A DNA stretch of 44,323 nucleotides from Steroidobacteraceae bacterium (GCA_049691655.1 JBAVOB010000061.1:1-44323), one strand, 5' to 3'. Shown: positions 9,089-44,323, counted from the first letter of the stretch. Numbers and translations are program-made. The notes: generated by a model not told the origin, from the letters alone.

Positions 9089-9224
9089 AGTGCGCCCTTT
9101 CGCCGCGATCCGCGGGCGCTGTCCTGCGGTGACACCTTGGCCGGCCAGGCAGACAGTTCACACGACGCCTGCAGCCAGCGCCTCAATTCAGCGTCGATCT
9201 GCCGAGGTGCAGCGCGCGTGGTCA

Positions 9225-9590: not shown

Positions 9591-9734
9591 GACTTGATGC
9601 CTCCGGTCGGGGGATGGGTGCACTGCGCTTGCGGGTCGAAGCAGCCGTCTGTCCTCGTCACGGCTGCCTGACGACCCTCGGCCGCTGACTCGCCCGTCGT
9701 TCCAAATCGTTAGCGCGTCGGCAGTCTTTGTGAC

Positions 9735-15024: not shown

Positions 15025-15481
15025 GCTACCTCGGGGTGCACCGATCAGGTTCCGTTAACTAACAACCATCGCGCGAATCGAAAGTCCGGGGAGACGGCTC
15101 ACGGCCCTGAGCCATCTTACCCTTGGCTATGTTACGGCCGCTGCGATCGCCGAGCGCGCCGTCGCCCTGCACCCAGGATCCGCGAGCGTGGGGTTCAGCA
15201 GCGGCACCGTGCGGCTGGTGGCCGCAGACCCGTCCTCGCCATCGAGCAGGTCAAGACTGCAGTGCGACCCGACGCCACGGGACCCGACTCACAGCGGAAG
15301 TTCAGCGACCCGAAATCGCTGCCGCATCGCGGCCGCTCAGGAGGCAACCGGGAGTCGAAACGGCCCGCCGGGGGACAAGCAAATCAAATACGGGCGCTGC
15401 TGGAGGCGATTGCGGCTTGTGCGGATACGAATCGTCAGGTTCCGGTGCTTAGACTGCCAAAAGGTCTGGAGGATTTTCATC

Positions 15482-15823
15482 ATGATTACCTGGAAGTTGG
15501 CACTTTCGACGGGCGTCGCCGCCCTGCTTCTGTCGCTCGGCGCCACGTCGCCGGCTGTTGCGCAGGCCGCCAGCGCCGCACCGGCCGAGGATCACGCCGC
15601 TCTGGCACTGTCCTACACTAGAGAGGCGGCGGAGCTCAAACAGAAGTCGGATGAGCATCGCAATCAGGCGAAACTGCATCGCACGACCGTTGGCAAGAGC
15701 GATGCGGCGCATCAATCGATGGCTATCCACTGCAACCGATTGGCTGACAGTCTCGCGGCAGCCGCGAAGGAGAGCGAGAAGCTGGCGGCTCTGCACACGA
15801 AGCTCGCGAACGCGGCGCACTGA
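15482..15823 (+). CDS. Small secreted helical protein, function unknown
   Basis: GGAGG lies 8 nt upstream of the ATG. The signal peptide MITWKLALSTGVAALLLSLGATSPAVAQA is followed by an Ala/Lys/His-rich helical region. Confidence 0.6.
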   Translation: MITWKLALSTGVAALLLSLGATSPAVAQAASAAPAEDHAALALSYTREAAELKQKSDEHRNQAKLHRTTVGKSDAAHQSMAIHCNRLADSLAAAAKESEKLAALHTKLANAAH

Positions 15824-16075
15824 TCCCGGCCTCGCGACCGATAGTCTCGGTCAGGAGCAGGCCTACAGCTCAAGGCGCGCATCGAGCGTCGGTGACCAGT
15901 CAGAATCGCTCCTGAGGGCCTGCGGAATCCCGGCCGCATCCGCGGACGGTGCCGCAACCCCGGACTCGTGCCGCAGAACGCTTGCCAGCGTGACGCCGGT
16001 GCGCGATCCTGAAGTTGGGTGCGGGCAACGCCTCTAGAGTGACTCGCCTTGAAGACTTTTGTCCTGGATCAGCCC

Positions 16076-17600: not shown

Positions 17601-19538
17601 TCAGCGCGGCAGGGAATACGCGATCACGTAGTCGCCCCGGGTGCTGTCCCCTTTGTAACCACCGGCCGAGATCACCAGGTACTGTCGCCCGCCGATGGCA
17701 TAGGTCATCGGCGTGGCCTGGCCACCCGCGGGGAGCTTCACCTCCCACAGGAGTTCGCCGGTGCCAGTGTCGAAGGCGCGCAGACGGTCATCGAGACTGG
17801 CGGCTATGAATATGAGGCCGCCCGCCGTGACGATCGGGCCGCCGATTCCGGGAATCCCGAGATTGACGTGAATGTACGGCGTGTCACCCAGCGGGATCTG
17901 CCACTTGATCGTGCCGTGCCGCATATCTACCGCGGTGAGCACGCCCCAGGGTGGTTTGACACAGGGGATGCCGAGAGGCGATTTGAAGGCCGTGCGCCTG
18001 ACCGCGTAGGGCGTGCCGTCCTGGCGGGCAAAATCAAAACCTTTGTATTTGCCCGACATGGACTGGCTATGTGCTTCCGCGCGCGGCACCAGGGCGACGA
18101 TGAACGGCAGGTTCATCGTGTTGACGACGGCTATCTGCCGCTGGGGATCGAAGGCAATACCCCCCCAGTTTGCTCCGCCCGCGTTTCCCGGCTGCATGAT
18201 CGAGTCACGCAGAGCGGGGGGCTGGAACATCCCTTCCGAGCGATAACTCTCGATCCGTTTCCTGCAGTCCCGCTTATCAAGCCAGGTGAGTCCCCAGGCA
18301 TCATCCGGCGTGACCCGCGCCTGGCGCGTGAGGGCCGGTGGCGCCACGGGGTACGGCTGCGTGGGGGAAGGGCGCTCCCCCGGGACCGCATCCTGCGGCA
18401 CGGGCTTCTCGACGATGGGGAAAACGGGAGTGCCGTCGTCGCGGTCGAACGTGTAGAGAAAACCGGTTTTCGTCGCCTGAATGACCGCCGCGACCTGTTT
18501 GCCGTCGTGCACGAGTTCCACCAGCGAAGGCTGGGCAGGAACGTCGTAGTCCCACAGATCGTGATGCACCAGCTGCTGGCCCCATTTCAGCCGGCCGGTG
18601 TCGCCGTCCAATGCGACGACTGAATTCGCCCAACGGTTGTCGCCAGGGCGCTCGCCGCCATAGAAATCGGGGCTGGCGGAACCAGTCGGGACGAACACCA
18701 GATGACGTGTCGCATCCACCGACAGCGGCGCCCAGGCATTGGCCGCGCTGGCGGACGGGACCCTCTGCGGATCCCACTCCCGGAAAACGGGGTTGGACGC
18801 ATCGCGCGGGATGGGATCCCAGCTCCATACAAGCCGGCCGCTGCGCGCATCGAAGGCCCGCACCGTTCCCAGTTCTTCAAGGACGGCACGGTTGTCGCCG
18901 ATTGAAGATCCGACGATTACCTTGTCGTCCAGAATCGCGGGCGGCGAGGTCACGAGATAGTCACGCCACTCGTTACCCTCCTTGAACTGGGAGCGCACGT
19001 CTTCGAGCAGATTCACGGCGCCCCGATCGCCGAAGTCCGCACAGGGTTTGCCGTTCGCGGCATCCAGCGCCAGCAGCCGGCCATCCAGCGTGGGTGCATA
19101 GATCCGCGCGCGACACGGAGCTGCTGGCGGTGCGGACTCATCTACCCAGATCGACACGCCGCGCGAGACGCCGTCCGAGTAGTGCAGGTCCTTCCGGCTT
19201 CCCGCGTTGTAACGCCAGCGCAGCTTGCCCGTTGCCGCATTCACGGCAACGACGTCCGTACTGCTGGTCGTTAGATAGAGCGTGTTGTCGTAGAGAATTG
19301 GCGTGGATTCGAACGCCGAGTGGTCCCAGTCTTTCACGCCCTGGCCAGTTTCGCCGGTTCTGAAAATCCAGGCGACCTGCAGGTCCTTGACGTTGGCTGG
19401 CGTGATCTGGCTGAGGCGCGTGTAGCGGCTCCCGCCCGCATCGCCGCCATAGCGGGACCAGCCGGCGTCGGGCGCAGGGTCCGCCTCGACGCACAGGACG
19501 GCGGCGGACGCACTCAGCGCAATCAATACTTGTCGCAC
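17601..19538 (-). CDS. Periplasmic PQQ-dependent dehydrogenase (glucose/quinate/shikimate-type beta-propeller)
   Basis: It has repeated W-motif propeller blades, YGGDAGGSRYTRLSQI, VHHDLWDYD and GGANWGG. I chose the GTG at 19538 because GGGGAG lies upstream and it gives the signal peptide VRQVLIALSASAAVLCVEA. There is no N-terminal five-helix membrane domain. Confidence 0.9.
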   Translation of the reverse strand: MRQVLIALSASAAVLCVEADPAPDAGWSRYGGDAGGSRYTRLSQITPANVKDLQVAWIFRTGETGQGVKDWDHSAFESTPILYDNTLYLTTSSTDVVAVNAATGKLRWRYNAGSRKDLHYSDGVSRGVSIWVDESAPPAAPCRARIYAPTLDGRLLALDAANGKPCADFGDRGAVNLLEDVRSQFKEGNEWRDYLVTSPPAILDDKVIVGSSIGDNRAVLEELGTVRAFDARSGRLVWSWDPIPRDASNPVFREWDPQRVPSASAANAWAPLSVDATRHLVFVPTGSASPDFYGGERPGDNRWANSVVALDGDTGRLKWGQQLVHHDLWDYDVPAQPSLVELVHDGKQVAAVIQATKTGFLYTFDRDDGTPVFPIVEKPVPQDAVPGERPSPTQPYPVAPPALTRQARVTPDDAWGLTWLDKRDCRKRIESYRSEGMFQPPALRDSIMQPGNAGGANWGGIAFDPQRQIAVVNTMNLPFIVALVPRAEAHSQSMSGKYKGFDFARQDGTPYAVRRTAFKSPLGIPCVKPPWGVLTAVDMRHGTIKWQIPLGDTPYIHVNLGIPGIGGPIVTAGGLIFIAASLDDRLRAFDTGTGELLWEVKLPAGGQATPMTYAIGGRQYLVISAGGYKGDSTRGDYVIAYSLPR

Positions 19539-19828
19539 AGTTCTCCCCGCATTTGATCCGTGCGGCGCGGTGCACAGCCAGCGTAGCGCAGATTCGGCAT
19601 AGAGGCGCACCGGAACTCTTGGCATACGGCTCTGTCGACCTGCCGGCATTTGCCTTCAATGCGTCCGCGAGGCTTGGGTCAAACAAACAGAATATCTTTA
19701 CAAGAACGGTCAGCGTACGATCTGCGGAGCCCGGACATCCATCCATCTCCTGGGACCGACGATGGTCTGCGGCCGGCCACGCGTCGCCTCGCATCCTAAT
19801 CAATTCAACACAATCAGGGGGCACCACC

Positions 19829-26323: not shown

Positions 26324-26788
26324 TCAGGGTTTCACGCGCTGGTACTTCGTTTCCACGCCCTTCGCTTCCTGCCCATCCGGTGTGATGTTATAGGCCGTGA
26401 TCGTCAGATAATCGCGATCGCTCAGTTCGAAGACGGTCTTCCAGCCCCAGGGTGGATCGGTCGGGCCAACGTCATATTTTCCTTTCACGGCGAAGCCCGT
26501 AGCGGTCGCGTCGCCTTCCGAGAACAGGATCGCGTAGTTCATGTGGAAGTCATCGAACCACGAGATCTCAAACTTTTTCGTCACCGAATTGAACGCGAGG
26601 GTCTCCTCGCCGTGCCGCGGCTTCCCCTGGATCGTGGACCGATACTCGTGGCGGAACAATCGCCCAGCCAATATCGGGCGAATCTCTCCGGCGACTTTGG
26701 ACTCGTCTGCCAGCGTGCCGGGTTCGAACCAGGTGCGACACGTACCTGTCCACGAGCCGACGAGTACCTCCAGGAACTCTTTGCCCAT
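26324..26788 (-). CDS. DUF1579 domain-containing protein
   Basis: LVGSWTGTCRTWFEPG ... AFNSVTKKFEISWFDDFHMN is the DUF1579 signature. Confidence 0.85.
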   Translation of the reverse strand: MGKEFLEVLVGSWTGTCRTWFEPGTLADESKVAGEIRPILAGRLFRHEYRSTIQGKPRHGEETLAFNSVTKKFEISWFDDFHMNYAILFSEGDATATGFAVKGKYDVGPTDPPWGWKTVFELSDRDYLTITAYNITPDGQEAKGVETKYQRVKP

Positions 26789-26898
26789 TGTTCATTTTCC
26801 TTGCGCGGGTTGCGTCAGATTCCTGCCTGGTTCCTGCGCGGATGCCACGGCAGCCAGTGCCAGCATGCCGCCCGCTACGAACATTCATTCAATCGTTT

Positions 26899-27327
26899 TC
26901 AGGATTTGCCCTTCGTAACGACCGCAAGCGTGACGAGCGCTTTGGCCACCAGGACCGCCGCCGCTCCCTCGCCCGCGAACACTTCGGATTCCGCGACGAT
27001 CAGCGTACGCCCGGGCTTGAGAACGCGGGCGTGACAGGTGAGTTGATCTCCGAATGCGGCGCGGAGCAGGTTGATGCTGAATTCTACCGTGAGCGGGTAC
27101 GAGCCGGGGTCGAGCACCGAACCGGCCGCTGCCCCGGCCGTGTGATCGGCGACGGTGGCGATGACCCCCGCGTGAACGATACCGTTTTGCTGCAGATGGC
27201 TGGGCTTGAGACGCAGCGTCGTGCGGCACTGCCCTGCGGACACCGACTCGAGTTCGACCCCGAGGCTCGCGATGAACGGCGCGGCCCGGAACATCTCGCG
27301 CAGCGCCTCAAGTGATGGCTCGGTCAT
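26899..27327 (-). CDS. PaaI family (hotdog-fold) thioesterase
   Basis: FIASLGVELESVSAGQC ... LQQNGIVHAGVIATVADHTAG is the canonical PaaI motif. The start overlaps the upstream stop as ATGA. Confidence 0.88.
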   Translation of the reverse strand: MTEPSLEALREMFRAAPFIASLGVELESVSAGQCRTTLRLKPSHLQQNGIVHAGVIATVADHTAGAAAGSVLDPGSYPLTVEFSINLLRAAFGDQLTCHARVLKPGRTLIVAESEVFAGEGAAAVLVAKALVTLAVVTKGKS

Positions 27328-28300
27328 GTCTGGTTCCCGGAAGGAGCTTGCACCGCGGTGATGATCACTTTCCCATGGGTTTCATCCTCGATGAAATGCC
27401 GGAGCGCGTCGCGGGCCGCACTCAGCGGGTAGGTACGGTCGATCACCGGCGTAATCTTGCCGGCTGCCAGAAGCTCGCTGAGGATCGTCATCGCCTCGCT
27501 TCGGGTGGGTCGCGGGACACGCGGGCCTCGCAGCTGCTTCACGAAACGTGAGAGGAAAATCAACCCGAGAAAGTGCGGGATGAGCCCAAGAACTCGCTTT
27601 CCCGATGCTCGGAACTTCTCGTGCCCGATGAGCACATAGCGCCCCTCAGGCTGGAGCGCGCGCCGCCGCGGGTGAAATCCTCCTGCGTGTAATCCATGAC
27701 TTCATCTGCCCCGAGCGCGCGCAGCATGCTCAGTTTGCTCGTGCCGTCCACGGCTGTCACGTGCGCGCCATAGGCCTTGGCGATCTGCAAGGCGAGGGCG
27801 CCCGCGCCGCCCCCGGCGCCATTCACCAGCACTTTCCGTCCCGAGAGCTCGGCCCCTTCCCGCAGGTTCTGCAGCACGATGAACCCGGAGGTGGGGACGG
27901 AAGCGGCTTGTTCGAATGTGACGTTCTCGGGCTTGAGCGCGAGCAAATCCTGCGGAACCGACACGTATTCGGCAAAGGCGCCGCCGTGGGTCCAGACATT
28001 CGTAACGGCGGTTTCGCCGAATACCGCGTCACGCGGCCAGAAGCGGGTCACGCCGGCGCCCACCGACTCGACGATTCCCGCCATGTCGGTGCCTGGAATG
28101 GGGTTGCGAGGCCTGGAAAGTCCCGCTCCCATCAGGCGCAGGATCAAGGGCCGCCCGGCCACGACATGCCAGACGTCCGGATGGACCGACGCCGCATGGA
28201 CCCGCACCAGAACCTGATCGTCGCCGACCGCAGGCTTCTCGACCTCGCGCCGCTCGAGATCATCGGGAGAACCATACCTTGTCTGGACGATCGCCTTCAT
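27324..28300 (-). pseudogene. MDR-family NAD(P)-dependent oxidoreductase disrupted by an out-of-frame internal deletion
   Basis: ORF 27560..28300 carries the N-terminal two thirds (VNGAGGGAGALALQIAK ... DYTQEDFTRGG). ORF 27324..27635 carries the C-terminal part in another frame (RALQPEGRYVLIGHEKF ... HGKVIITA). About 20 codons seen in the paralog at 11683..12789 (QRYDVILDNVGN...) are missing at the junction near 27655. Confidence 0.8.
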
Positions 28301-33257: not shown

Positions 33258-33817
33258 TGCAGTCGTGCAAACAGGATTGCGACGTACGCGCCCATCAGGA
33301 GTGCAGCCACGACCGCCAGGATTTCGTTGAAGCGCTCGCCCCGCACCAGCATCGCCGAGACGCACGAGATCGCGAAGAACGCATGAAACGCGAGGTTCTC
33401 CGGCGAGGCAAACCGACCGTAGAGGATCACGTCCTTTGCGACGCTCACGACCACGGCCGCGAGCAGGAAGCCGAAGAGCCAGCGTCTGTGTTTCTCGTAG
33501 TGGATTCGCAGATCCACCCCTGCCTCGTCGACTTTCTCCGGCAGGACGATCGCTGCCACCATGTAAAGCGCAATCGTCTGCAGCAGCACGATCGCAAACG
33601 CGGGAAAAGTCCAGGTGGTGTAATGGCGCAGCACGAACATCGCCCACCATGACTGGATGAATATCAGCAGCAGCACACCCGCCCAGAGCAGGGTCGGCCA
33701 GTGGAAACGCACCCGGTCCCTGTGCGTGATCAGACGACCGCTCGCCGTCAACAAATGACTGATGCCGAGGCCGATGATGATCGACAACAGGACTGAGAGG
33801 TAGGTGAACGCGTCCAT
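33254..33817 (-). CDS. Hypothetical integral membrane protein
   Basis: 187 aa with six hydrophobic helices. I recognise no family. Confidence 0.7.
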   Translation of the reverse strand: MDAFTYLSVLLSIIIGLGISHLLTASGRLITHRDRVRFHWPTLLWAGVLLLIFIQSWWAMFVLRHYTTWTFPAFAIVLLQTIALYMVAAIVLPEKVDEAGVDLRIHYEKHRRWLFGFLLAAVVVSVAKDVILYGRFASPENLAFHAFFAISCVSAMLVRGERFNEILAVVAALLMGAYVAILFARLH

Positions 33818-33955
33818 GTTGAGGCAGAGGTCAGGGGCACAAAGGTCAAACCGGTTAGGTGATCGACATTCCTGCGGCGCGATGCCATAGCTTCAGCGCG
33901 ATGCGAACGGTCGTCAAGACGCCTGGAGTCTGCTACACGTCGAAGCCGACATCGC

Positions 33956-34853: not shown

Positions 34854-35675
34854 TCAGGCAGCGCGGCCTTCAAGCCTGAACACTCGCGCGGCATTGCGTC
34901 CGAGGAACAGCGCCCGGGCCTCCGCATCCAGGCCGAGCGCGTCGAGGCCTGCCAGCGCCTTCTCCGGCAGGATCATCGGATAGTTACTCCCGAAGAGAAT
35001 CTTCGCGCGGCCGTGGCTGCGCATGAATTCGACGAGGCTCGCGGGATAGCGACGCGCGGTGTAGGCGGAAGTGTCGATGAATACGTTCTCGTGCTTGGTC
35101 GCCACCGCAAGCGCCTCGTCGGTCCAGGGATACCCGATGTGGCCGGCAACGATCCGAAGCTCGGGAAAGTCGAGCGCCACCTGATCGAGATAGATCGGTC
35201 GGCCCACTTCACTCGGCATGAGCGGGCCGGTATGCCCGATCTGCGTGCAGAACGGGACGCCGAGATCCGCGCACGCCGTATACACAGGATAGAAACGCCG
35301 GTCGGTGGGCGGGACCTCCCAAAGCCAGGGGAGTACCCGGATCGCCTTGAAGCCGAGCTCACTGATGCAGCGGCGTACCTCCCGCACGGCGACCATCGGG
35401 CGGGAGAGGTCCACGGACCCGACCCCTAGAAGGCGGCCCGGAGCCTGGGCGACGAACGCTGCGACTTCGTCGTTCGAGATCAGCGCTCGCCGTGGCGCCA
35501 CCCAGGCGCTGATGAACGCCCGCTCCACCCCTGCGCGATCCATCGCGGCGATCGTGGCCGAGACCGGCAGCTCCTCGGTCGGCGCGCGGGTCTTCGTCCA
35601 GTGCCGGAGTGGCTCAAACATGGGATCGGCCGCGAACCGCAGGGTGGGGTGCTGGCTCCACGCGTCGATGATCAT
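34854..35675 (-). CDS. Amidohydrolase-2 (ACMSD-like) family metal-dependent hydrolase
   Basis: MIIDAWSQHP ... FKAIRV ... CTQIGHTGP ... IVAGHIGYPW ... NVFIDTSAY ... ILFGSNYP is the typical pattern for this family. Confidence 0.88.
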   Translation of the reverse strand: MIIDAWSQHPTLRFAADPMFEPLRHWTKTRAPTEELPVSATIAAMDRAGVERAFISAWVAPRRALISNDEVAAFVAQAPGRLLGVGSVDLSRPMVAVREVRRCISELGFKAIRVLPWLWEVPPTDRRFYPVYTACADLGVPFCTQIGHTGPLMPSEVGRPIYLDQVALDFPELRIVAGHIGYPWTDEALAVATKHENVFIDTSAYTARRYPASLVEFMRSHGRAKILFGSNYPMILPEKALAGLDALGLDAEARALFLGRNAARVFRLEGRAA

Positions 35676-36642: not shown

Positions 36643-36668
36643 TTTCGGTTGTCGGATGTTGCGCTGTG

Positions 36669-36734
36669 CGCTAAAGACGCGGCCTCTTCCTTGAGCGCAA
36701 GCCGTTGGCGCCGCGCTTGAGCGAGAAGTTAGGC
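36669..36734 (-). repeat. Degenerate attC, R'' GCCTAAC, L' recognisable, R' absent
   Basis: L'' (ttctcgctcaagcgcggcgcc) pairs imperfectly with ggccgcgtctttagcg. Where GTTRRRY is expected the sequence reads cacagcgcaac. Confidence 0.4.
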
Positions 36735-36735
36735 A

Positions 36736-36984
36736 TCACTCGCCGCCCCAGCGCCACCGCGGCGGCTCGCCGGTCCGCAGGCAGACGACCACTAGCACTA
36801 AGGACAGCACCACGACATAGACCGAGAAGGCGCCAGCGCGCGTCCGTGGATCGATGACCACCATGCCGCCGAAGAGCAGGACGAGATAGCCGACGACCAC
36901 GACCCACCCCTGCCAGCGAATCGGCAGACCCCATCCCCACCCGTAGCGCTTGGCGGGAAACCAATATTCAGGATCTTCGGGCAT
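36736..36984 (-). CDS. Small membrane protein (cassette ORF)
   Basis: I chose the internal ATG at 36984 (MPEDPEYWFPAKRYGWGWGLPIRWQGW, then two helices) because the longer TTG-started ORF begins inside the upstream attC. The stop lies 1 nt before an R''-type GCCTAAC. Confidence 0.6.
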   Translation of the reverse strand: MPEDPEYWFPAKRYGWGWGLPIRWQGWVVVVGYLVLLFGGMVVIDPRTRAGAFSVYVVVLSLVLVVVCLRTGEPPRWRWGGE

Positions 36985-37013
36985 CGGCTTCGGGATCAGT
37001 GATGCGGATTGAA

Positions 37014-37085
37014 GCCTACCCTGCCAGAGCGCAGTCGGCAATCCGGGGCGCGCATGCGCGGTGCCGGCTGGAGCCGATTGTTAGA
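37014..37085 (-). repeat. Degenerate attC (72 nt), R'' ATCTAAC, R' position reads GGTAGGC
   Basis: R'' is canonical and overlaps a stop codon. There is a central gcgcatgcgc palindrome. The conserved GTT of R' reads GGT. Confidence 0.5.
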
Positions 37086-37485
37086 TCTCGGTGGCACGAA
37101 CTCTCGACCGCGACAGAAGCCAGGCAAGGTACGCAGCCGCCACGACATCGTATGCAAGGCAGAACGGCGGCCACCAAGCGGGTACCCCGGGGTTTGCGAT
37201 CAACCGGCCATGGATGAAATCAAACAATCCGTGTGCCGATAGCGCCGCGACGACTAACCATAGCGAAGTTCTGAACCCTGCAATGGATGCCGCTAGAAAC
37301 GCAGCGACAACGATGGATTCGACCATTAGCGCATGAACCGAGCCGCCCATGACCGCGAACAACGCGTAGTACGATGCAATGACGATCATCACAGTAGGAT
37401 AGAAAGCTCGATCTCGGTCCAAGCCAAGAAAAGTGGCTGAGAGCCCGACCGAAAGTGCCAAGACTGCTCCGACCAGGAACGCCAC
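37081..37485 (-). CDS. Hypothetical membrane protein (second gene of a two-gene cassette)
   Basis: 134 aa with four helices and a GTG start that has GGAG upstream. Its TAA stop is embedded in ATCTAAC, the R'' of the attC. Confidence 0.65.
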   Translation of the reverse strand: MAFLVGAVLALSVGLSATFLGLDRDRAFYPTVMIVIASYYALFAVMGGSVHALMVESIVVAAFLAASIAGFRTSLWLVVAALSAHGLFDFIHGRLIANPGVPAWWPPFCLAYDVVAAAYLAWLLSRSRVRATEI

Positions 37486-37505
37486 GGTGGTGCTCCAAAC
37501 TCGCG

Positions 37506-37868
37506 CTACACGCGCGGATCAGACGGAACGCCATCAACCAATTGCTGCAACTCCGGGGCAACAGCCATACGCGTGAACATGCTGACGTCGGTTCCTCCGG
37601 TATTCCCGACCGGAACTACCCCGACTGCCGAGCCAAGAATTCCCAATACGATGCGCGCGACTTGCCCGAGGGCGGCCACGGCCCGCCTTCTTCGCAATTC
37701 GACATTGAGCATCAGGCAGTGGGAATAGGCATGGGGTACAACAAAGGCCTGGCCAATGATGTGGGCGCGCTCAAGGTGACGAAAACCGGCCTCCAGTTCG
37801 CCTTTCGCGATGAGTTCTTTCGCCAGCGCGATTTCATTGTCGAACGCGACACGCTGAACAGAATTCAT
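37506..37868 (-). CDS. DUF3703 domain-containing protein
   Basis: FRHLERAHIIGQ ... HAYSHCLML ... GNTGGTDVS is the DUF3703 signature. GGAGAG lies upstream, and the gene starts 18 nt after the attC R'. Confidence 0.8.
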   Translation of the reverse strand: MNSVQRVAFDNEIALAKELIAKGELEAGFRHLERAHIIGQAFVVPHAYSHCLMLNVELRRRRAVAALGQVARIVLGILGSAVGVVPVGNTGGTDVSMFTRMAVAPELQQLVDGVPSDPRV

Positions 37869-37886
37869 GAACTTCTCTCCATCGCG

Positions 37887-37973
37887 ATCTAACGCACGCG
37901 CTCAGCCGTGCCAAGCGAAGCGAGGGAACCCCGAGGCCGCAGGCCGGGAGGCGTTGCGTGGAGCGCGTTGCTG
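37887..37973 (-). repeat. attC site (87 nt), R'' (C)AGCAAC, R' GTTAGAT
   Basis: L'' (acgcgctcca) pairs with L' (ggctgagcgcgt). R' is canonical. Confidence 0.7.
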
Positions 37974-38001
37974 GGCGGCATGTACGGATATGGGCCCACT
38001 C

Positions 38002-38439
38002 TTATAGATCCATTTGCCTGAACCCTAGCGCCCGCAGGAACCCCATTGAGTCGACGTAGACGTCCTTGCGGGCAACAAGGTTGCCGGCGAACGGAATCAC
38101 ATCGACGCCGTTCCAGGAGACCTTTGTTCCTGTTGGCTGCACCGTAGTGGAACCCTTCGTGTATGGCATGGACAGCGTGCCAGTCGCTGTCCATTCCTGC
38201 GTCACCACACCGTCTCGCACGTAGGTCCGACGTGCATCGAAGCGGATATCGGGAAACGCGGCGAAGATTCCCTTCAGGATCTCGCGTATGTCGTCCTTAC
38301 CGACACCCTTTCCGCCGCTCGTGTGGTTTTCGAAGACGGAATCCTCGGTGTGCATCGCGAGAATGGCCTCCACGTTGTGGTCATTCCACGCTGCTCCGTA
38401 AGCGGCAATCACCTTCTCAAGCGGATGCTCAGAGCTCAT
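38002..38439 (-). CDS. SnoaL-like ester cyclase / NTF2 family protein (cassette ORF)
   Basis: AAWNDHNVEAILAMHTEDSVFENH ... FPDIRFD ... NGVDVIPF. AGGGGGA lies upstream. Confidence 0.85.
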   Translation of the reverse strand: MSSEHPLEKVIAAYGAAWNDHNVEAILAMHTEDSVFENHTSGGKGVGKDDIREILKGIFAAFPDIRFDARRTYVRDGVVTQEWTATGTLSMPYTKGSTTVQPTGTKVSWNGVDVIPFAGNLVARKDVYVDSMGFLRALGFRQMDL

Positions 38440-38472
38440 CGTGTCCCCCTGGGCCAGAAGCGGAGCTACTCA

Positions 38473-38685
38473 TCAACTGAGTGACAATTTCAAGTGCCGC
38501 CCAACGTTCGTCACCACCGGCGCTGAGGCTGCGGAGCAGCCGAAGCAGCGCAAGCGAGCCGCGGGCGAGTGCAGCATCGACATATCCACATCATCGAGAT
38601 GCTTGAGGTATGAACATCCTTTGCCAAGGGAGTACTTGCCTAACTGCGCCAGTGACTCGTCATGTTGTTCCCAGCCAGCTAGCAT
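38473..38685 (-). pseudogene. DUF1801 (YdhG-like) family 3' remnant
   Basis: Only the C-terminal part of the family is present (TLYMLAGWEQHDESLAQLGKYSLGKGCSYLKHLDDVDM). The N-terminal ~70 aa are absent, the VOC gene ends at 38729, and the tail of the ORF runs into attC sequence. Confidence 0.55.
38507..38580 (-). repeat. attC 3' half (R' GTTGGGC at 38507-38513); R'' not recognisable
   Basis: R' is canonical and is preceded by structured sequence (gcgctg ... gctgc-tcc-gcagc ... cagcgc). The upstream boundary merges with the DUF1801 remnant. Confidence 0.45.
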
Positions 38686-38728
38686 GTAAAGGGTGAGGGT
38701 ATGTTTGCGCGGCGCTGGTCGTCCGCAT

Positions 38729-39097
38729 TCACCCCACACCGAACACGCTGAGCTTGTTGCCGTCCAGGTCGCGGAAATAGCCGGCGTAGAAATCTTCGCC
38801 GCGCGCGCCAACCGGGCCTTCGTCCTTACCACCGACTTCAAGCGCCTTCTTGTGCACACGGTCCACCGTCGCGCGCGAGTCGACACCCAGCGCCACCATC
38901 ACGCCGTTGCCGACCGTCGCCGGCTTCTGGTCAAATGGAATCACGATGCCGAGGCTCGGCTTGTCCATCGAGACGCCGTAGGTGTATCCGCGACCATAGT
39001 CCATCAAGCGCTTGGCACCGATTTCCGCGAGTAGGGCATCGTAGAAGGCCGCCGCACGCGGCAGGTCATTGGTGCCGAGGGTGACGTATCCAATCAT
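38729..39097 (-). CDS. VOC family protein (cassette ORF)
   Basis: MIGYVTLGTNDLPRAAAFYDALL ... GYFRDLDGNKLSVF. AAGGAG lies upstream. Confidence 0.88.
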   Translation of the reverse strand: MIGYVTLGTNDLPRAAAFYDALLAEIGAKRLMDYGRGYTYGVSMDKPSLGIVIPFDQKPATVGNGVMVALGVDSRATVDRVHKKALEVGGKDEGPVGARGEDFYAGYFRDLDGNKLSVFGVG

Positions 39098-39127
39098 TGT
39101 GAGTTCTCCTTGTCATTTGAAGAAATA

Positions 39128-39222
39128 GCGAAACGCATATTGGTCAAGCGGTAGCGTCACAGCACCCAGAAGGTGCGCCCGGATGTGGGTACGAAACCCG
39201 CCGCTGATTGCGAACGTTGGGC
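39128..39222 (-). repeat. attC-like site (95 nt), R'' GCCCAAC, non-canonical R' GTTTCGC
   Basis: R'' is canonical and lies 16 nt after the GFA stop. L'' (caatcagcgg) partially pairs with L' (ccgcttgacc). Only the GTT of R' is conserved. Confidence 0.5.
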
Positions 39223-39238
39223 GACGGCAAGCTGGCGC

Positions 39239-39646
39239 TCATTGTGTTTTCCGGGGCGGCCACGCATCGTATTGTGGAAGCGCGTCAGTGATGTCGTGCC
39301 AGGCAGCTTTCGACCCGACAAACATGTGAAAGCTGGGGCGAACTCCAGGATCCTTATCGAGTGCACCCAGAGCGAGAGCGCTGAGCTCCCCCCGGCTTGG
39401 GAGATCGAGACTGGATCCGCAGACGTGGCAGAAGGCCCAACCTATGCCCGGATAAGATTCATAGACCGTCAGAAGGTCTTGACCTTTGAGCCAACGGAAT
39501 TCCTCGGCACTTACGTTTGTGTACGAGGCAAATGCCGCTCCATGAAATCGCCTACACATCGAACAATGGCAGTTACCCACATCGGTAAGAGGGCCATCCA
39601 CCTCGTAACGCATTGCACCGCAAAGACAACCGCCCTGTATTGTCAC
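39239..39646 (-). CDS. GFA family protein (cassette ORF)
   Basis: The GFA Cys pattern is present: CLCGAMRY ... CHCSMCRR ... CHVCGS. The track start at 39673 (GTG) straddles the attC crossover point (GTG-TTAGCC), so I moved the start to the GTG at 39646 (VTIQGGCLCG). Confidence 0.85.
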   Translation of the reverse strand: MTIQGGCLCGAMRYEVDGPLTDVGNCHCSMCRRFHGAAFASYTNVSAEEFRWLKGQDLLTVYESYPGIGWAFCHVCGSSLDLPSRGELSALALGALDKDPGVRPSFHMFVGSKAAWHDITDALPQYDAWPPRKTQ

Positions 39647-39664
39647 GCTGCCGAATCCTCTGCC

Positions 39665-39734
39665 GGCTAACACCCCGGTTCAGCCGCAAAAAACGCCGCA
39701 GGCGTTTTGTGTTGGTTGCAACCGTTTGTTAGGC
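39665..39734 (-). repeat. attC site (70 nt), R'' GCCTAAC, R' GTTAGCC
   Basis: cggttgcaacc ... aaaacgcc-tgc-ggcgtttt ... gcggctgaacc. It is a sibling of attC 40182..40251. Confidence 0.85.
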
Positions 39735-39749
39735 CCGCCGCCTCTCGGA

Positions 39750-40136
39750 TCATTGGCCTGCCGGAGGTTGCCAGAAATCAACCTTGTTGCCCTCCGGGTC
39801 CAAGACCCACCCGAATTGTCCGTACTCGCAATCGTCGGTCTTGTCGAGCACGTTACATCTCTCTGCGCGCAAGGCTTTCAGGAGGCTTTGCAGGTCCACG
39901 ACTCGATAGTTGACCATAAAGGACGACGCACTCGGTGCAAACTGGTTGCCGTCAGCGCTACCCACGGACCAAACGGTCGTGCCCGCCGTGGGTTTACCGC
40001 TCTCGTCAGTCCAACGAAATGCGGTGCCTCCCCATTCCTGGACGTCAATGCCGAGATGCTTCTTGTACCAAGCCCCTAGTGCGGTAGGATCCTTTGCCTT
40101 GAAAAACATCCCGCCGACTCCTGTAACTCTTCTCAT
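39750..40136 (-). CDS. VOC/glyoxalase family protein (cassette ORF)
   Basis: VTGVGGMFFKAKDPTALGAWYKKHLGI ... GWVLDPEGNKVDFWQP. GGGAGGG lies upstream. Confidence 0.85.
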   Translation of the reverse strand: MRRVTGVGGMFFKAKDPTALGAWYKKHLGIDVQEWGGTAFRWTDESGKPTAGTTVWSVGSADGNQFAPSASSFMVNYRVVDLQSLLKALRAERCNVLDKTDDCEYGQFGWVLDPEGNKVDFWQPPAGQ

Positions 40137-40181
40137 CTGCCCTCCCGGAAGGTGATCAAAAAGCGATGCCTGGCGCAGCGG

Positions 40182-40251
40182 GCCTAACGTTCAGGTTCAG
40201 CCGCGGCAAACGCCGAAGGCGTTTGACCTCGGCTGGAACCGCTGGTTGGGC
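40182..40251 (-). repeat. attC site (70 nt), R'' GCCCAAC, R' GTTAGGC
   Basis: It has the same architecture as attC 39665..39734: cggttccagcc ... aaacgcc-ttc-ggcgttt ... gcggctgaacc. Confidence 0.88.
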
Positions 40252-40261
40252 GTCGCCACAG

Positions 40262-41002
40262 CTATGCTCTGCTAACTTGCCAAGCGTTCGCCCTGTCTTC
40301 CCACTTCGGCACGTTGACGCCCTTCACGGTGAGCCACAGGGCAAGGGACAGTTCCCCGATGAAGGCAGGCAACAGTACCCAGGGGAATAGCGCTCCTGCG
40401 ACCGGGGGAGAGAGGATCAGTGCAAAGCTGTTGATCAGATAGCACAGGCCGGCGATCGCCATCAGGATACCGAGGAGCTTGGGGAAGAAGCCCGACTTGA
40501 GGATGAGATATCCCAAGGCGAGGCAGGAAAAGCCGAAAAATATCAGAGCGACGCCAAAGCCGACAGAGTGCGCCTTCAGAGACAGCAAAGCCATCGCCTG
40601 CAGCTGCTGCGGACTAAAGACCTTCAGGTAATCCGCGCCTCCCAGCAGTTGCAAGGCCCTGTATGGATTCAGCCCGTTGATGCCTCCGATGGCATCCTGT
40701 ACCAGATTGAAGAACACCATGAGCAACGCCAGGTTCCTGTTCACCGGCTTAAGCAAGACATACAGGATCATCGTCAAGGCGATAGCGCACAAAAAAGTTG
40801 TCAGGTCGGCGGCGATGCCGAGGCGGAACAACGTCTCATGGGTCGTGATGTTGGCGGCCGTGGCCGCCGCATCGGCCGGCACGACCAGCCTGTCTCGGAC
40901 GAAGGCTTCGGCAAAGAGGCCGGCGGCGATGATGATGAGGTACAGCAGGCCCCCGATTCGGGCGTAGGCCTGCGGCGAGAATTGAGTGATTGGGTTTTTC
41001 AT
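40262..41002 (-). CDS. DUF4386 domain-containing membrane protein (cassette ORF)
   Basis: ARIGGLLYLIIIAAGLFAEAFVRDRLVVPADAAATAANI is the typical DUF4386 N-terminus. The protein has six or seven helices. Confidence 0.85.
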   Translation of the reverse strand: MKNPITQFSPQAYARIGGLLYLIIIAAGLFAEAFVRDRLVVPADAAATAANITTHETLFRLGIAADLTTFLCAIALTMILYVLLKPVNRNLALLMVFFNLVQDAIGGINGLNPYRALQLLGGADYLKVFSPQQLQAMALLSLKAHSVGFGVALIFFGFSCLALGYLILKSGFFPKLLGILMAIAGLCYLINSFALILSPPVAGALFPWVLLPAFIGELSLALWLTVKGVNVPKWEDRANAWQVSRA

Positions 41003-41046
41003 TTTGATTCCCCGATTACGAAGTTCGTCATGGCCCCTCTAGGGAC

Positions 41047-41125
41047 GCCCAACGCTCGAGTTGAGCGGCCGCACGCGGCGCGCACCTGACGAGGCTCCAC
41101 CGGCCACTCGAGCGCGTTGTTAGGC
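41047..41125 (-). repeat. attC site (79 nt), R'' GCCTAAC, R' GTTGGGC
   Basis: gcgctcgagtggccgg pairs with ccggccgctcaactcgagc, leaving extrahelical bases. Confidence 0.85.
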
Positions 41126-41147
41126 GTCACTGAGCAAGGCGCCTCGG

Positions 41148-41555
41148 TCAGTCGGCGACTCTGCGCCAGCCTACCGCCAAGCCATTCTCAACCTCCATGC
41201 CAACGCCTACCGCTTGAACCTTGCCATTGGTGATCCACGACACCTTGTAGACATCACCGATCTTGTCGATGACCAAGTCATACTCGTCGGAAAATTCTCC
41301 GTTGTCGTAAAAGTAGCGAACGTGGTAATTCCCGGCGAAACCTGCCTTCGGCCCCCCAGTGGCAATCCCGGGTCCGCTATACTTTGTTGAGTACATCCAT
41401 CTTGCGTTTAGGGTTCCCGGCGCCGGGCTCTTTGTGTACAGAACAAAGCCGATATTCGATACGTCGGAGGCCTCGGGAGCAGCGGCAACGGGCGTCCAGT
41501 GGGACGCGCACAGCAATCCTGTCAGTGATGCTGCGATGAAAATGGATCTAGCCAT
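41148..41555 (-). CDS. Secreted hypothetical protein (cassette ORF)
   Basis: The internal ATG gives the signal peptide MARSIFIAASLTGLLCASHWTPVAAAPEA. I recognise no family. Confidence 0.65.
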   Translation of the reverse strand: MARSIFIAASLTGLLCASHWTPVAAAPEASDVSNIGFVLYTKSPAPGTLNARWMYSTKYSGPGIATGGPKAGFAGNYHVRYFYDNGEFSDEYDLVIDKIGDVYKVSWITNGKVQAVGVGMEVENGLAVGWRRVAD

Positions 41556-41594
41556 GGCTCGCCCTCTCTCTGTTCCAAACATGCTTGTTGTGAC

Positions 41595-41657
41595 GCCTAA
41601 CGCGCCGCTTCAGGGGTGCGCCGCTTGCGGCGCGTCCGCTGCAGACGGATGTTAGAG
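41595..41657 (-). repeat. attC site (63 nt), R'' (C)TCTAAC, R' GTTAGGC
   Basis: R' is canonical. R'' has C at the R position. There is a central gcgccgc-aa-gcggcgc hairpin. Confidence 0.7.
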
Positions 41658-41681
41658 CGCAACACCTTCAGTTCGCGACTG

Positions 41682-42332
41682 TCAGTTCTCTATGGTGACA
41701 ATGTGGGCCGGGATCTTGGCGTCCACAGCCCCCCGACCGAACCGTTGGGCGAGCGCTTCGGCGGCGTCGTCGGTGGCTTCGCCGAGCAGCGCGGCGTTGC
41801 GCGTCTCGATCTCGTTTCGCAGCGGTGTCCCCTGGCAGTACGCGATCGCGGGGACCCGGGCAGATTCTGCCCGACTGCGCGCTGCAACCGTGGTGATCTG
41901 AGGTGATCCAGTGAGCCCGCCGTTTGCAAAATCTCGCTTGATGGTCAGAGGGTCCCAATAGCCGTGGGGTGTACGCGCGAGGAAGCGAGGCGGATCCTCA
42001 GGAAACAGCGGCTCGAGTGCCGTCGCGACGATGGACACACCTTCAGGTATCACGGATGCCAGAGCACGAGTCACGACACCCGTGCCGGCTGCAATTTCGA
42101 GCACGCGAGTAAAAGGCCTCGAAGCTAGCCGAGTCGCCAGGTCCGCAGCGTAGGGCTCGAAGATCAGCGGAACGAGATACGTTTCGTAGAACTTGGCAAT
42201 TGAGCCACTGAAGACTTTGTCGGTATCGGGACTACTCATAGTGTTGCCCGCATCCTCGGTGCCGTTGCCCCCAAACGCTGTGCCGCCGCCGAAGGCCGTC
42301 CGCTGCAGCGGCTTGTTAGACGGCATCGTCAT
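41682..42332 (-). CDS. Class I SAM-dependent methyltransferase-like protein, probably internally deleted
   Basis: Motif I is present (VLEIAAGTGVVTRAL) and so is the family C-terminus (PPRFLARTPHGYWDP ... CQGTPLRNEIE), but the intervening core of the fold appears to be missing. The start overlaps the upstream stop as ATGA. Confidence 0.7.
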   Translation of the reverse strand: MTMPSNKPLQRTAFGGGTAFGGNGTEDAGNTMSSPDTDKVFSGSIAKFYETYLVPLIFEPYAADLATRLASRPFTRVLEIAAGTGVVTRALASVIPEGVSIVATALEPLFPEDPPRFLARTPHGYWDPLTIKRDFANGGLTGSPQITTVAARSRAESARVPAIAYCQGTPLRNEIETRNAALLGEATDDAAEALAQRFGRGAVDAKIPAHIVTIEN

Positions 42333-42739
42333 TTGTCCCCGAAGCCGACCTTTAGTTGGCGCTGATACTCGGCCTCGTCAAAATGCCCCTTCGACTGGGC
42401 GATCAGACCGTCCGCGCCAATGGTCCACTCCTCAAACCCGCTGATACGCACGGCCTTGCCTGTACCTCCCGGGCCGGTGTTTGTCCCAGTCAGCGTCCAG
42501 CGGTAGACAGCATGGTCTCCATCGACGCTGACTCCATCTATCGTCACGACCATATCTGGGAAGGCGGTCATGAAGCCCTGCGCTGCCGCCGTGATCGCTA
42601 CCCTGCCGACAGAAGGGGCTCCGTCGTTGATCTTCAGTGACCCACGTTCCGCAAAGAACGCCGCGACGCTAGCGGCGTTCTGACTGCACCAAGCTGCGGT
42701 GTATTCTCTTCCAAATTCCCGCAACTTCGCCACATCCAT
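42329..42739 (-). CDS. SnoaL-like ester cyclase (cassette ORF)
   Basis: MDVAKLREFGREYTAAWCSQNAASVAAFFAERGSLKIN ... FPDMVVTIDGV. GAGGGAG lies 7 nt upstream of the ATG at 42739. The longer ORF in the track (to 42907) starts inside the attC. Confidence 0.8.
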   Translation of the reverse strand: MDVAKLREFGREYTAAWCSQNAASVAAFFAERGSLKINDGAPSVGRVAITAAAQGFMTAFPDMVVTIDGVSVDGDHAVYRWTLTGTNTGPGGTGKAVRISGFEEWTIGADGLIAQSKGHFDEAEYQRQLKVGFGDK

Positions 42740-42888
42740 TGCATTCTCCCTCGACGTGCAAGCGGTGAACGCAGCTAACCCTATTGCTGCGACCATGACC
42801 GCCCACCGGCCCCTACGGTCTCGTCGGTGATCTATCTTCAACAGGGCCCTCCACTCGATAGCTACTGGTGTCGTGCCCGCGCCCGTCC

Positions 42889-42977
42889 GCCTAACGTCCG
42901 AGCTCACCGGCGGCGCTTATGGCGTGAGCGATTGGCACTTTATGCCGATCGCCGTCCGGTGGAGCGATTAGTTAGAC
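42889..42977 (-). repeat. attC site (89 nt), R'' GTCTAAC, R' GTTAGGC
   Basis: Both core sites are canonical. cgctccaccggacggcg and cgccgccggtgagc form the imperfect stem. Confidence 0.85.
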
Positions 42978-43227
42978 CCCGCTTGACGACCCGTCGAAGG
43001 GCGCTATTGATCTGAGTCTGATACCCGCGGCCGTGGGCACGGAAGAACGCTAGGATGTCGGCATCGAGCCGAATGGTCGTTGAAACCTTGGTGGGGGCTC
43101 GCTGCGGGCCACGGCCCTTCTTGCGCATGGGAGGCCCGAGCATTTCCTCGGACCAGGGCGGGTTGACAGCATCACGGCCCCTAGCTGTAAAAGTTCTTGG
43201 CTTCTTCAACATAGTAGCGCGCTTCAT
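42940..43227 (-). CDS. brnA: BrnA antitoxin (type II TA)
   Basis: KVSTTIRLDADILAFFRAHGRGYQTQINSALRRVV is the BrnA C-terminal signature. The start overlaps the 3' end of brnT, and the ORF terminates inside the attC. Confidence 0.8.
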   Translation of the reverse strand: MKRATMLKKPRTFTARGRDAVNPPWSEEMLGPPMRKKGRGPQRAPTKVSTTIRLDADILAFFRAHGRGYQTQINSALRRVVKRGLTNRSTGRRSA

Positions 43228-43462
43228 ATTTCTCAGCCTTGCGTAGAGAGATGATATGGGGTCCTCTGCGACGTTCGGTATAGACCAAAACCACAACTTG
43301 GCGGTGGAGCCGCCCAAAGGTAACCCACCGCTGTTCACGGTACCGCTGCCGAATGTCCTCGCGCGTGACCGTGAAGTCGTCCCAAATGGCCTCGCACCCG
43401 ACGAAATCCAAGCCGTGCTTGCTGATATTGGCGCGGCGCTTTGGCTCGTCCCACGTGACCAC
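43181..43462 (-). CDS. brnT: BrnT toxin (DUF497 ribonuclease, type II TA)
   Basis: The GTG start gives VTWDEPKRRANISKHGLDF ... VVLVYTERRRGPHIISLRKAEKYE, the canonical BrnT sequence. Confidence 0.85.
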   Translation of the reverse strand: MVTWDEPKRRANISKHGLDFVGCEAIWDDFTVTREDIRQRYREQRWVTFGRLHRQVVVLVYTERRRGPHIISLRKAEKYEARYYVEEAKNFYS

Positions 43463-43468
43463 GAGCTG

Positions 43469-43497
43469 ATTGTAGTAACAAAATAATGAGAAAGCAA
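43469..43497 (-). promoter_or_regulatory. Putative brnTA cassette promoter
   Basis: On the minus strand it reads TTGCTT, a 17-nt spacer, TACAAT, then 6 nt before the GTG start of brnT. It sits in a locally A/T-rich stretch immediately after the attC R'. Confidence 0.55.
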
Positions 43498-43514
43498 ATC
43501 GAAATGAAAGCGGG

Positions 43515-43645
43515 GTCCAACGTCCGCGATCAGCGGCGGTGCGCGGTCGGCGCGTCGCTTGCTGATCGCAACCTGTCGTCGCCGGTGCCTGTCCGCGCAA
43601 GCGGCGTGCCGAGCGCGCGACGACCGCTGCATCGCATAGTTAGGC
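43515..43645 (-). repeat. attC site (131 nt), R'' GCCTAAC, R' GTTGGAC
   Basis: L'' (gcgatgcagcgg) pairs with L' (ccgctgatcgc). R'' overlaps the higA stop. Confidence 0.85.
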
Positions 43646-43933
43646 CGTGCTGACCTTGAGCGTCTCGATGCCCCGGAGATCGACCTTTCTCTTTGCCTGC
43701 CACAGATCGTGACTGTGCTGCATGGCAAGCCAACTCTCGGCGGAGCGACCGAGACACTTCGACAGACGCAGAGCCATCTCTGGAGTAACGCTGCTGGCAC
43801 CAGTCAAAACACGGTTGAGAGTGGACGGCGACACCCTGAGCTTGGCCGCCAGCTCGCGACCGCTGATGCCATTCGGCTCAAGATACACCGCAGCAATGAA
43901 CTCGCCCGGGTGAGGAGGGTTATGCATGGCCAT
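43640..43933 (-). CDS. higA: HigA family antitoxin (XRE-type HTH)
   Basis: PPHPGEFIAAVYLEPNGISGRELAAKLRVSPSTLNRVLTG ... SPEMALRLSK is canonical HigA. The TAA stop is embedded in GCCTAAC, the R'' of the attC. Confidence 0.9.
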   Translation of the reverse strand: MAMHNPPHPGEFIAAVYLEPNGISGRELAAKLRVSPSTLNRVLTGASSVTPEMALRLSKCLGRSAESWLAMQHSHDLWQAKRKVDLRGIETLKVSTA

Positions 43934-44211
43934 CAGTGATAGTCCTCATAGTCCAACAAATAGGCCTGTCCGTCTCTGAACTCGAATGTCAGACGCCAAT
44001 TGCCATTGACCCAAACCGACCAACGGCCCCGTTCGGACCCTCTCAGCGGATGCAGCCTGAATCCTGGAATATCCATATCGCCAATGACTTGCGCAGTCTC
44101 CAGGGCTATCAACAGCATCCGCAGTCGTCTCGCATGCTTCGGCTGGATGCCTCCCAAACTGCCGGCTTCATAGAAGCGGCGCAGCCCCTTGTGCCGAATC
44201 GATTGGATCAC
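43933..44211 (-). CDS. higB: HigB-type toxin (RelE/ParE superfamily, plasmid maintenance system killer)
   Basis: IQSIRHKGLRRFYEAGSLGGIQPKHARRLRMLL ... RLHPLRGSERGRWSVWVNGNWRLTFEF ... DYEDYH. The toxin-first order with a 1-nt overlap (TGATG) is typical of higBA. Confidence 0.9.
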   Translation of the reverse strand: MIQSIRHKGLRRFYEAGSLGGIQPKHARRLRMLLIALETAQVIGDMDIPGFRLHPLRGSERGRWSVWVNGNWRLTFEFRDGQAYLLDYEDYH

Positions 44212-44217
44212 GCGCGG

Positions 44218-44246
44218 AGTGTAGCACGTTGCGCATCACGCAACAA
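44218..44246 (-). promoter_or_regulatory. Putative higBA cassette promoter with operator palindrome
   Basis: On the minus strand it reads TTGTTG, a 17-nt spacer, TACACT, then 6 nt before the GTG start. The inverted repeat GTTGCG-tgatg-CGCAAC (44228-44244) overlaps the -35 and the spacer. Confidence 0.5.
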
Positions 44247-44249
44247 GCG

Positions 44250-44323
44250 GCTTAACGCTCGCGTTGAGCGGCCGGGCACGCCGCCTGAACAGGCGCCGCG
44301 GGCGCAAACTGCCTTAGCGCCCG
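44250..44323 (-). repeat. attC site, partial (R' GTTAAGC at 44250-44256; R'' probably beyond window edge)
   Basis: The L'-R' half (cggccgctcaacgcgagcGTTAAGC) is nearly identical in design to attC 41047..41125 (cggccgctcaactcgagcGTTGGGC). Confidence 0.55.

Follow-up and report, generated by a model that had tools for sequence, protein, structure and literature searches.

A probable integrase-distal integron cassette array in a fixed chromosomal position of an uncultured bacterium

The right-hand end of a 44,323-nucleotide contig assigned to a Steroidobacteraceae bacterium (GCA_049691655.1, JBAVOB010000061.1:1-44323) carries a run of short minus-strand genes separated by imperfect palindromes, and raises the question of what kind of element this is. 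The window analysed here is the entire contig. A preliminary description, made from the sequence alone, had read the region as a minus-strand integron gene-cassette array with attC recombination sites in the gaps between the genes, and this core reading is borne out by covariance-model scores, folds and polarity. We hold, with a probability of roughly 0.9, that the segment at 36.7-44.3 kb belongs to an integron gene-cassette array, of which it is the integrase-distal part, and that this array occupies a fixed place in the chromosome of an uncultured bacterium. Direct support comes from the sites themselves, their folds and strand polarity, the organisation of the cassettes, and the different cassettes found in relatives at one and the same flank.

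The sites were sought with two home-made covariance models, whose short calibration makes all E-values given here rough. The first (R1) was built from 12 attCs of class 1 integrons, taken solely from clinical plasmids in which the integrons had been located by tblastn with IntI1 (aadA1, aadA2, aadB, psp, qacL, orfF, cmlA1, blaVIM-2, aac(6')-Ib, dfrA12, arr-3 and aac(6')-29a); it consists of seven R-box pairs and nine L-box pairs flanking a one-base bulge. Sequences with misplaced L' boxes in the first MAFFT alignments (dfrA27, estX, dfrA12 and arr-3) were dropped or pruned before R1 was made. The second model (R2) rests on 112 environmental attCs drawn from R1 matches, with the window and its identical Logan copies excluded, and its training alignment also yielded profile hidden Markov models (HMMs) of the left and right half sites. 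Both models were applied to the two strands of the entire window, with filters off.

The six highest R1 scores in the 44 kb all lie on the minus strand and coincide with sites of the preliminary description (in descending order 42889-42977, 40182-40251, 41047-41125, 43515-43645, 37887-37976 and 39665-39734; scores in Table 1), four of them with E<1e-4, and 41595-41657 stands at rank nine. R2 recovers six complete minus-strand sites with 27.6-58.3 bits; the top R2 match in a control of 1.44 Mb of unrelated genomic loci scores 18.4 bits. The strict motif pair RYYYAAC...GTTRRRY with its halves 50-160 nucleotides apart occurs five times in the 44 kb, each time inside 40182-43645. On the plus strand the same six loci reach only 8-18 bits with R2, and the polarity of the attCs is therefore that of the minus strand. 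A comparable bias is seen in 83 loci fetched from metagenomes, mainly with HigB, where all 157 R1 sites at E<=0.01 lie on the strand of the HigB homologue.

Folded as plus-strand DNA, the sites at 40182, 39665, 42889, 43515, 41595 and 41047 take the textbook shape of an attC bottom strand, in which an unpaired spacer separates the R-box stem from an L-box stem that bears one extrahelical G or C on its 3' arm, and a terminal hairpin of variable form closes the structure. Folding is poor at 39128, 37887, 37014 and 36669. Across the six complete sites 91.6% of the model pairs are formed, as against 22-44% with slid partners, a count made on a model-fitted alignment and thus biased toward the structure of the model; five L-box pairs show compensatory changes on both sides. 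The attCs thus combine a covariance-model match with R''/R' and L''/L' pairing, a spacer left unpaired and an extrahelical base from which the strand polarity follows. Our tally is seven solid sites, one marginal site, four relics and one rejected candidate. An attC layout had been proposed for every gap, with about 12 sites listed; seven of these are solid, while the rest are marginal, decayed or, at 38507, unsupported. The quality of the sites declines from right to left, those at the distal (left) end being progressively decayed. An attC array is recognised by at least two same-strand attCs less than 4 kb apart with one or two co-oriented open reading frames (ORFs) between them, and this is the arrangement of the seven solid sites. 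Left of 36.7 kb, inspection of the intergenic gaps by eye and both models with filters off found nothing above 12.6 bits.

The genes conform to a cassette organisation. All ORFs of the array lie on the minus strand, as first described, with their stops at or adjoining R'', and the solid units, measured from G|TT to G|TT, are 735, 626, 1294 (or 619 + 675 if the relic at 42270 is counted), 548, 865 and 517 bp long, a range of 517-1294 bp where about 520-1300 bp had been estimated. The content had been given as VOC, GFA, SnoaL and DUF proteins with two toxin-antitoxin pairs, and Pfam indeed finds HigBA, BrnTA, two SnoaL, two VOC, GFA, DUF4386 and DUF3703 proteins. A promoter scan of the array found no promoter consensus.

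The far end of the array and its history emerge from two relatives, L176 and L178, which are metagenome contigs reached through cluster mates of the amidohydrolase encoded at 34854-35675. L176 is 98% identical to the window and collinear with it from 36702 down to 26001, and right of about 36702 the two part: L176 has a glyoxalase-gene cassette there, with an attC of 26.6 bits in front of the gene. In L178 the identity to the left of 36702 is 90%; at its junction a DUF4386 cassette with its upstream attC, 95% identical to window positions 40289-41132, is joined directly to the flank, and further up come transposases of the IS481 and IS110 families and an additional attC scoring 46.5 bits. When the three junctions are aligned, L'' and L' prove complementary to each other within every terminal site but differ from one site to the next, uniform high identity sets in only from about 36669, and the junction shows no GTT core. 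Judged by this comparison, the far end of the array lies at about 36.67-36.70 kb, in keeping with the start at about 36.7 kb proposed earlier. Since the left flank is common to L176 and L178 while the cassettes differ, the locus is fixed and its cassette content turns over among close relatives.

The transposase genes of L178 (598-3750) stand between cassettes, and immediately downstream of the IS110 element there is a GTTAGGC core, an arrangement reminiscent of the IS1111-attC elements that target attC sites.

A second group for comparison is formed by environmental integrons with HigBA cassettes (L004-L083). HigB homologues from a metagenome scan (80 loci, with identities of 89% or less in that scan) lie mostly inside attC arrays; their HigB is 74-90% identical to that of the window, and the attC consensus is the same, GCCTAAC..TGCAGCGGAC...CCGCTGAAC..GTTAGGC. 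One of these integrons (L082) has an intact intI and another (L007) at least 20 cassettes, among which a SnoaL gene (87% identity) and a membrane protein gene (52%) are shared with the window. They differ in belonging to other organisms, in having no common flank and in being partly homogeneous arrays with an attC class of 126-130 nucleotides. L007 (1-20276) and L008 belong to one 110-kb metagenome contig on which intI is partly visible and at least 20 attCs occur, a large share of them in the 126-130-nucleotide class; in common with the window it has HigBA (85%), SnoaL (87%) and three other gene homologues.

Whether an integrase accompanies the array turns on the contig end. No match to IntI1 was found in the window by tblastn, as had been noted, and the integrase-proximal end of the contig falls inside an attC. 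As the window is the whole contig and ends within an attC, it does not by itself separate a complete integron from a cluster of attC sites lacking an integron integrase (CALIN), and for the same reason its lack of intI carries no information on the replicon. A 100%-identical Logan contig from another run (L001) stops at 44269 in the same attC, 54 bp from the contig end, and exact-protein look-ups for HigB and the DUF4386 protein return only 100%-identical Logan contigs below 3.3 kb, also broken at attCs. Both breaks, in the contig and in L001, are probably assembly breaks at a repeated or variable junction. That the two end in one attC upstream of higB also suggests branching of the assembly graph, that is, variable upstream cassettes in the population. 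Among the related HigB-bearing arrays, tblastn with IntI1 always places the integrase upstream of the attCs and on the opposite strand; that of L082 scores 483.8 bits with TIGR02249 (cut-off 265), and partial integrases occur in L025, L007 and L052, the L025 copy being truncated. The geometry predicted at the outset, with attI and a plus-strand intI to the right of 44323, is therefore the normal one, and by analogy with these arrays we infer that intI and attI lie beyond 44323.

How such an array would work can be drawn from established integron biology. The attC bottom strand, here the plus strand, would fold into a bulged hairpin with R-box stem, unpaired spacer and L-box stem with extrahelical base; the integron integrase would bind it and cut at the G|TT core. 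Recombination between two attCs would release a cassette as a circle, and recombination of attI with attC would put the circle back at the array's head, beside the promoter. Distal cassettes such as these would form a mostly silent stock, and the HigBA and BrnTA cassettes would drive their own expression and make loss of the array costly; silent distal cassettes, and toxin-antitoxin cassettes that discourage large deletions, are described for other integrons (PMC11023631; PMC13108822). Present-day recombination and cassette expression at this locus would likewise be expected by analogy.

Several points weigh against this reading and have to be set beside the evidence above. No intI, attI or Pc is visible and the contig stops inside an attC, so that the sequence falls short of demonstrating a complete integron. 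Four or five of the sites listed at first fail or barely reach significance, and the bias of the pair count has already been mentioned. The GTT core is absent from the terminal site in the window (GCGCAAC, 36657-36734) and in L176 (CACAACA, about 540-640), and this is not what the canonical attI x attC model would lead one to expect. L178 may differ from the window through a microhomology deletion and not an integrase event. Finally, the attCs of the array are heterogeneous, with lengths of 63-131 nucleotides and a mean pairwise identity of 54% (40-73%), as compared with a mean of 81% in L005, a homogeneous array of the 126-nucleotide attC class. The preliminary description had taken homogeneity of the attCs as the mark of a sedentary integron, and this argument falls; of the resemblances cited for it, those of the edge site to the 3' part of the site at 41047 and of the two 70-nucleotide sites to each other (73% identity) stand, and the array-wide mean does not follow them.

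The alternative that survives best is a true CALIN, an orphan array on a replicon without integrase, where intI was lost, or the array was split off by rearrangement or was seeded at a secondary site, and which would be mobile only with an integrase in trans. On this contig alone the element is a CALIN in the terms of IntegronFinder, whose rule asks for at least two attCs on one strand less than 4 kb apart and no integrase (Cury et al. 2016, PMC4889954). Like CALINs and chromosomal arrays it has such attCs, no integrase in the sequence examined, and cassettes of unknown or accessory function in place of resistance genes; CALINs are also common and mostly without a nearby intI pseudogene (PMC4889954). 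No intI-like sequence in 44 kb, the decayed distal sites, the terminal site without GTT core and the truncated intI of L025 all favour an orphan array, even though decay of several distal sites and the GTT-less end also set this array apart from CALINs, and its status as one may be an artefact of the contig end. We nevertheless consider it rather unlikely that the replicon lacks an integrase, because the contig breaks off within an attC on the integrase-proximal side, so that the relevant DNA is simply missing, because the attCs nearest that end are the best preserved, and because cassettes differ between relatives with 98% flank identity, which suggests recent recombination.

A more far-reaching variant is that the visible array is the still-recognisable tip of a far larger fossilised cassette store, in which the attCs were lost and the genes became ordinary chromosome, the conserved GTT-less terminal site then marking an unusual array end or secondary-site seeding in a lineage without close sequenced relatives. 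Positions 1-36600 of the window may be such a fossilised array; but next to the array this DNA is a stable flank that L176 matches at 98% identity, and we regard this variant as distinctly improbable.

The genes of 1-36600 are mostly small minus-strand accessory genes of cassette-typical families (six glyoxalase, three GFA, two each of MAPEG, GNAT and cupin, and SnoaL, DUF1579, DUF488, GYD, 4HBT and AHSA1), without attC sites. In L007, attCs at 14232-14280 and 14829-14906 flank the homologue of the gene at 13852-14523, which is a true cassette there.

For the integrase-distal array at a fixed locus, the remaining issue is whether it is sedentary or mobile. A mobile integron (classes 1-5), or an array of cassettes borne by a plasmid or transposon, could be suspected from the attC heterogeneity, which is closer to that of mobile integrons than of large sedentary ones (PMC4889954), and from the 47 bits of the 42889 site with a model dominated by aadA-type attCs. 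We reject a class 1-like mobile integron as very unlikely: a Pfam scan of the annotated ORFs of the window found no mobility or resistance gene (no transposase, Tn402/Tn7 or plasmid gene in the 44 kb), and the flank is conserved in two independent metagenome contigs. The likeness to class 1 attCs (aadA1, aadB, cmlA1, blaVIM-2 and others) is one of layout, R''-spacer-L''(bulge)-variable loop-L'-spacer-R' with G|TT, by which their model detects the sites of the window; unlike class 1 integrons, the array has no Tn402, qacEdelta1/sul1 or resistance genes, and its sites are richer in G+C. Instead, the flank found in three populations, the lack of annotated mobility and resistance genes and the toxin-antitoxin cassettes support a chromosomal, sedentary element.

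With sedentary chromosomal integrons (the Vibrio cholerae superintegron, those of Xanthomonadales) the array shares a fixed locus, toxin-antitoxin cassettes, co-oriented ORFs and variable content among close relatives. For sedentary integrons attC bottom strands have been reported to lie on the leading-strand template (PMC11023631). A mostly negative plus-strand GC skew (32 of 44 1-kb segments) would be consistent with this orientation here, but skew over 44 kb without an origin map is weak evidence. Sedentary integrons are operationally defined by more than 19 attC sites or by presence in all genomes of a species (PMC4889954). The array differs in its number of visible sites (7-12: seven solid and about five weak, truncated by the contig end), in its lower attC identity and in that no integrase is seen; its locus is occupied in three related populations, a sample narrower than a pan-genome.

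That the palindromes belong to another repeat class (repetitive extragenic palindromes and bacterial interspersed mosaic elements, or intrinsic terminators with chance AAC/GTT ends) is hardly credible and is rejected: GC-rich imperfect hairpins do stand downstream of ORFs and Rfam, in gathering and E-value modes, has no attC-like family in the window, but an independent model of bona fide attCs matches strand-specifically, there are no T-tracts and no enrichment of terminator-like sites in the array (7 against 7.5 expected), the palindromes are confined to 7.6 kb of the contig, and homologous cassettes elsewhere adjoin true integron integrases.

The host is tentatively placed in an uncharacterised, poorly represented gammaproteobacterial lineage. 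The best match of its pyrroloquinoline quinone (PQQ) dehydrogenase (17601-19649) among 185,579 species genomes is 65%, with Gammaproteobacteria, Lysobacteraceae and Steroidobacteraceae metagenome-assembled genomes on top, and no synteny was found with the species genomes matched by this protein. The array is one more environmental chromosomal cassette array in a very large known pool, with no resistance gene and no new mechanism. Its value lies in a locus that can be compared across three related populations, with cassette turnover beside a conserved flank and attC decay toward the far end, and so offers a modest natural illustration of how cassettes may turn into permanent genes of the chromosome.

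Table 1. Cassette genes and attC or attC-like sites, listed from the contig end leftwards; bits and E-values of sites refer to covariance models R1 and R2 or to half-site HMMs.
Feature	Position	Strand	Cassette	Evidence and remarks
edge half-site	44250-44323	-		3' part of attC (L'-spacer-R'), GTTAAGC at 44256-44250; right-half HMM at 44250-44271, E 5e-4
higB	43933-44211	-	1	Pfam HigB-like_toxin 75.7 bits
higA	43640-43933	-	1	Pfam HTH_3 40.3 bits; toxin-antitoxin pair with higB
attC, 131 nt, GCCTAAC...GTTGGAC	43515-43645	-		R1 27.5, R2 53.1 bits; bottom-strand bulged hairpin, -46.3 kcal/mol
brnT	43181-43462	-	2	Pfam BrnT_toxin 77.6 bits
brnA	42940 to about 43228, start uncertain	-	2	Pfam BrnA_antitoxin 65.2 bits; toxin-antitoxin pair with brnT
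attC, 89 nt, GTCTAAC...GTTAGGC	42889-42977	-		R1 47.2 (E 6e-10), R2 58.3 bits; bottom-strand fold with extrahelical G
SnoaL-like protein gene	42329-42907, true start probably internal	-	3	Pfam SnoaL_2 64.3 bits
attC relic, short or decayed, GTCTAAC...GTTTGGG	42270-42321	-		left-half HMM E 4e-4, 3' half defective; R2 14.8 bits, E 0.13
ORF, methyltransferase remnant-like by eye (GxGxG motif)	41682-42238	-	4	nothing significant in Pfam
attC, 63 nt	41595-41657	-		R2 31.2 bits, E 8e-6; R1 only 9.1 bits
hypothetical protein gene, N-terminus hydrophobic by eye	41148-41582	-	5	no Pfam family
attC, 79 nt	41047-41125	-		R1 34.1, R2 51.2 bits; 95%-identical copy with DUF4386 gene in L178
DUF4386 membrane protein gene	40262-41002	-	6	Pfam DUF4386 200.8 bits
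attC, 70 nt	40182-40251	-		R1 36.2, R2 45.1 bits; canonical R stem, unpaired spacer, L stem with extrahelical G
VOC/glyoxalase-like gene	39750-40136	-	7	Pfam Glyoxalase_6 23.0 bits, E 1.3e-4
attC, 70 nt	39665-39734	-		R2 27.6 bits, E 6e-5; R1 14.4 bits; 73% identical to 40182 site
GFA family gene	39239-39673	-	8	Pfam GFA 79.8 bits; 69%-identical homologue in L005
degenerate palindromic site	39128-39222	.		no full-model match at E<=10 on either strand; right-half HMM at 39201-39222, plus strand, E 0.0045
VOC gene (38729-39097), then probable DUF1801 gene fragment	38473-39097	-		Pfam Glyoxalase 26.1 bits; DUF1801 15.3 bits, E 0.026
doubtful GTTGGGC core	about 38501-38507	-		right-half HMM E 5.6, not significant
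SnoaL-like cassette gene	38002-38439	-		Pfam SnoaL_2 70.4 bits; 90%-identity cluster, n=78; 87%-identical copy in L007
marginal attC	37887-37976	-		good L box, GTTAGAT core, degenerate R''; R1 18.5 (E 0.02), R2 16.2 bits (E 0.057); right-half HMM E 0.014
DUF3703 gene	37506-37868	-		Pfam DUF3703 110.3 bits
134-aa hydrophobic, membrane-like ORF	37081-37485	-		
attC relic	37014-37086	-		5' half retained (left-half HMM E 0.017); core mutated to GGTAGGC; R2 9.4 bits, E 3.1
last cassette gene, 101-aa hydrophobic membrane-like protein	36736-37041	-		52%-identical L007 homologue (15467-15715), followed by attC at 15720-15830
terminal relic and array boundary	36657-36734	-		R'' GCCTAAC, complementary L''/L', GCGCAAC in place of GTT core; left-half HMM E 0.038

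Some of the individual sites need comment. The edge half-site is a real attC cut by the contig end, its 3' part being nearly identical to that of the 41047 site, and the relic at 42270-42321 had been overlooked in the preliminary description. The score of the marginal site at 37887-37976, taken alone, falls within the background range of the 1.44-Mb control. The degenerate site at 39128-39222 reads as a decayed or inverted attC; its spacer and bulge asymmetry is that of an attC whose top strand would be the plus strand, opposite to its neighbours. The candidate at 38507 was rejected as an attC on its half-site E-value, and the gap seems to hold the DUF1801 gene fragment instead.

Farther from the array, the comparison with L176 reveals two differences in the flank. 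A stretch of 378 bp of the window (26518-26895, the 5' part of a DUF1579 gene with its upstream gap) is missing from L176 at 10441-10442, through a deletion there or an insertion here. A zinc-dependent alcohol dehydrogenase/quinone reductase gene (27324-28300) is split in the window into overlapping ORFs at 27324-27635 and 27560-28300 and intact in L176 (344 aa, 8980-10014), so that the window copy is probably a frameshifted pseudogene. Plus-strand positions 33770-33824 give weak Rfam matches, at chance level (14-17 bits, E 1-9), to the archaeal C/D-box snoRNAs sR47, sR28, sR1 and sR14.

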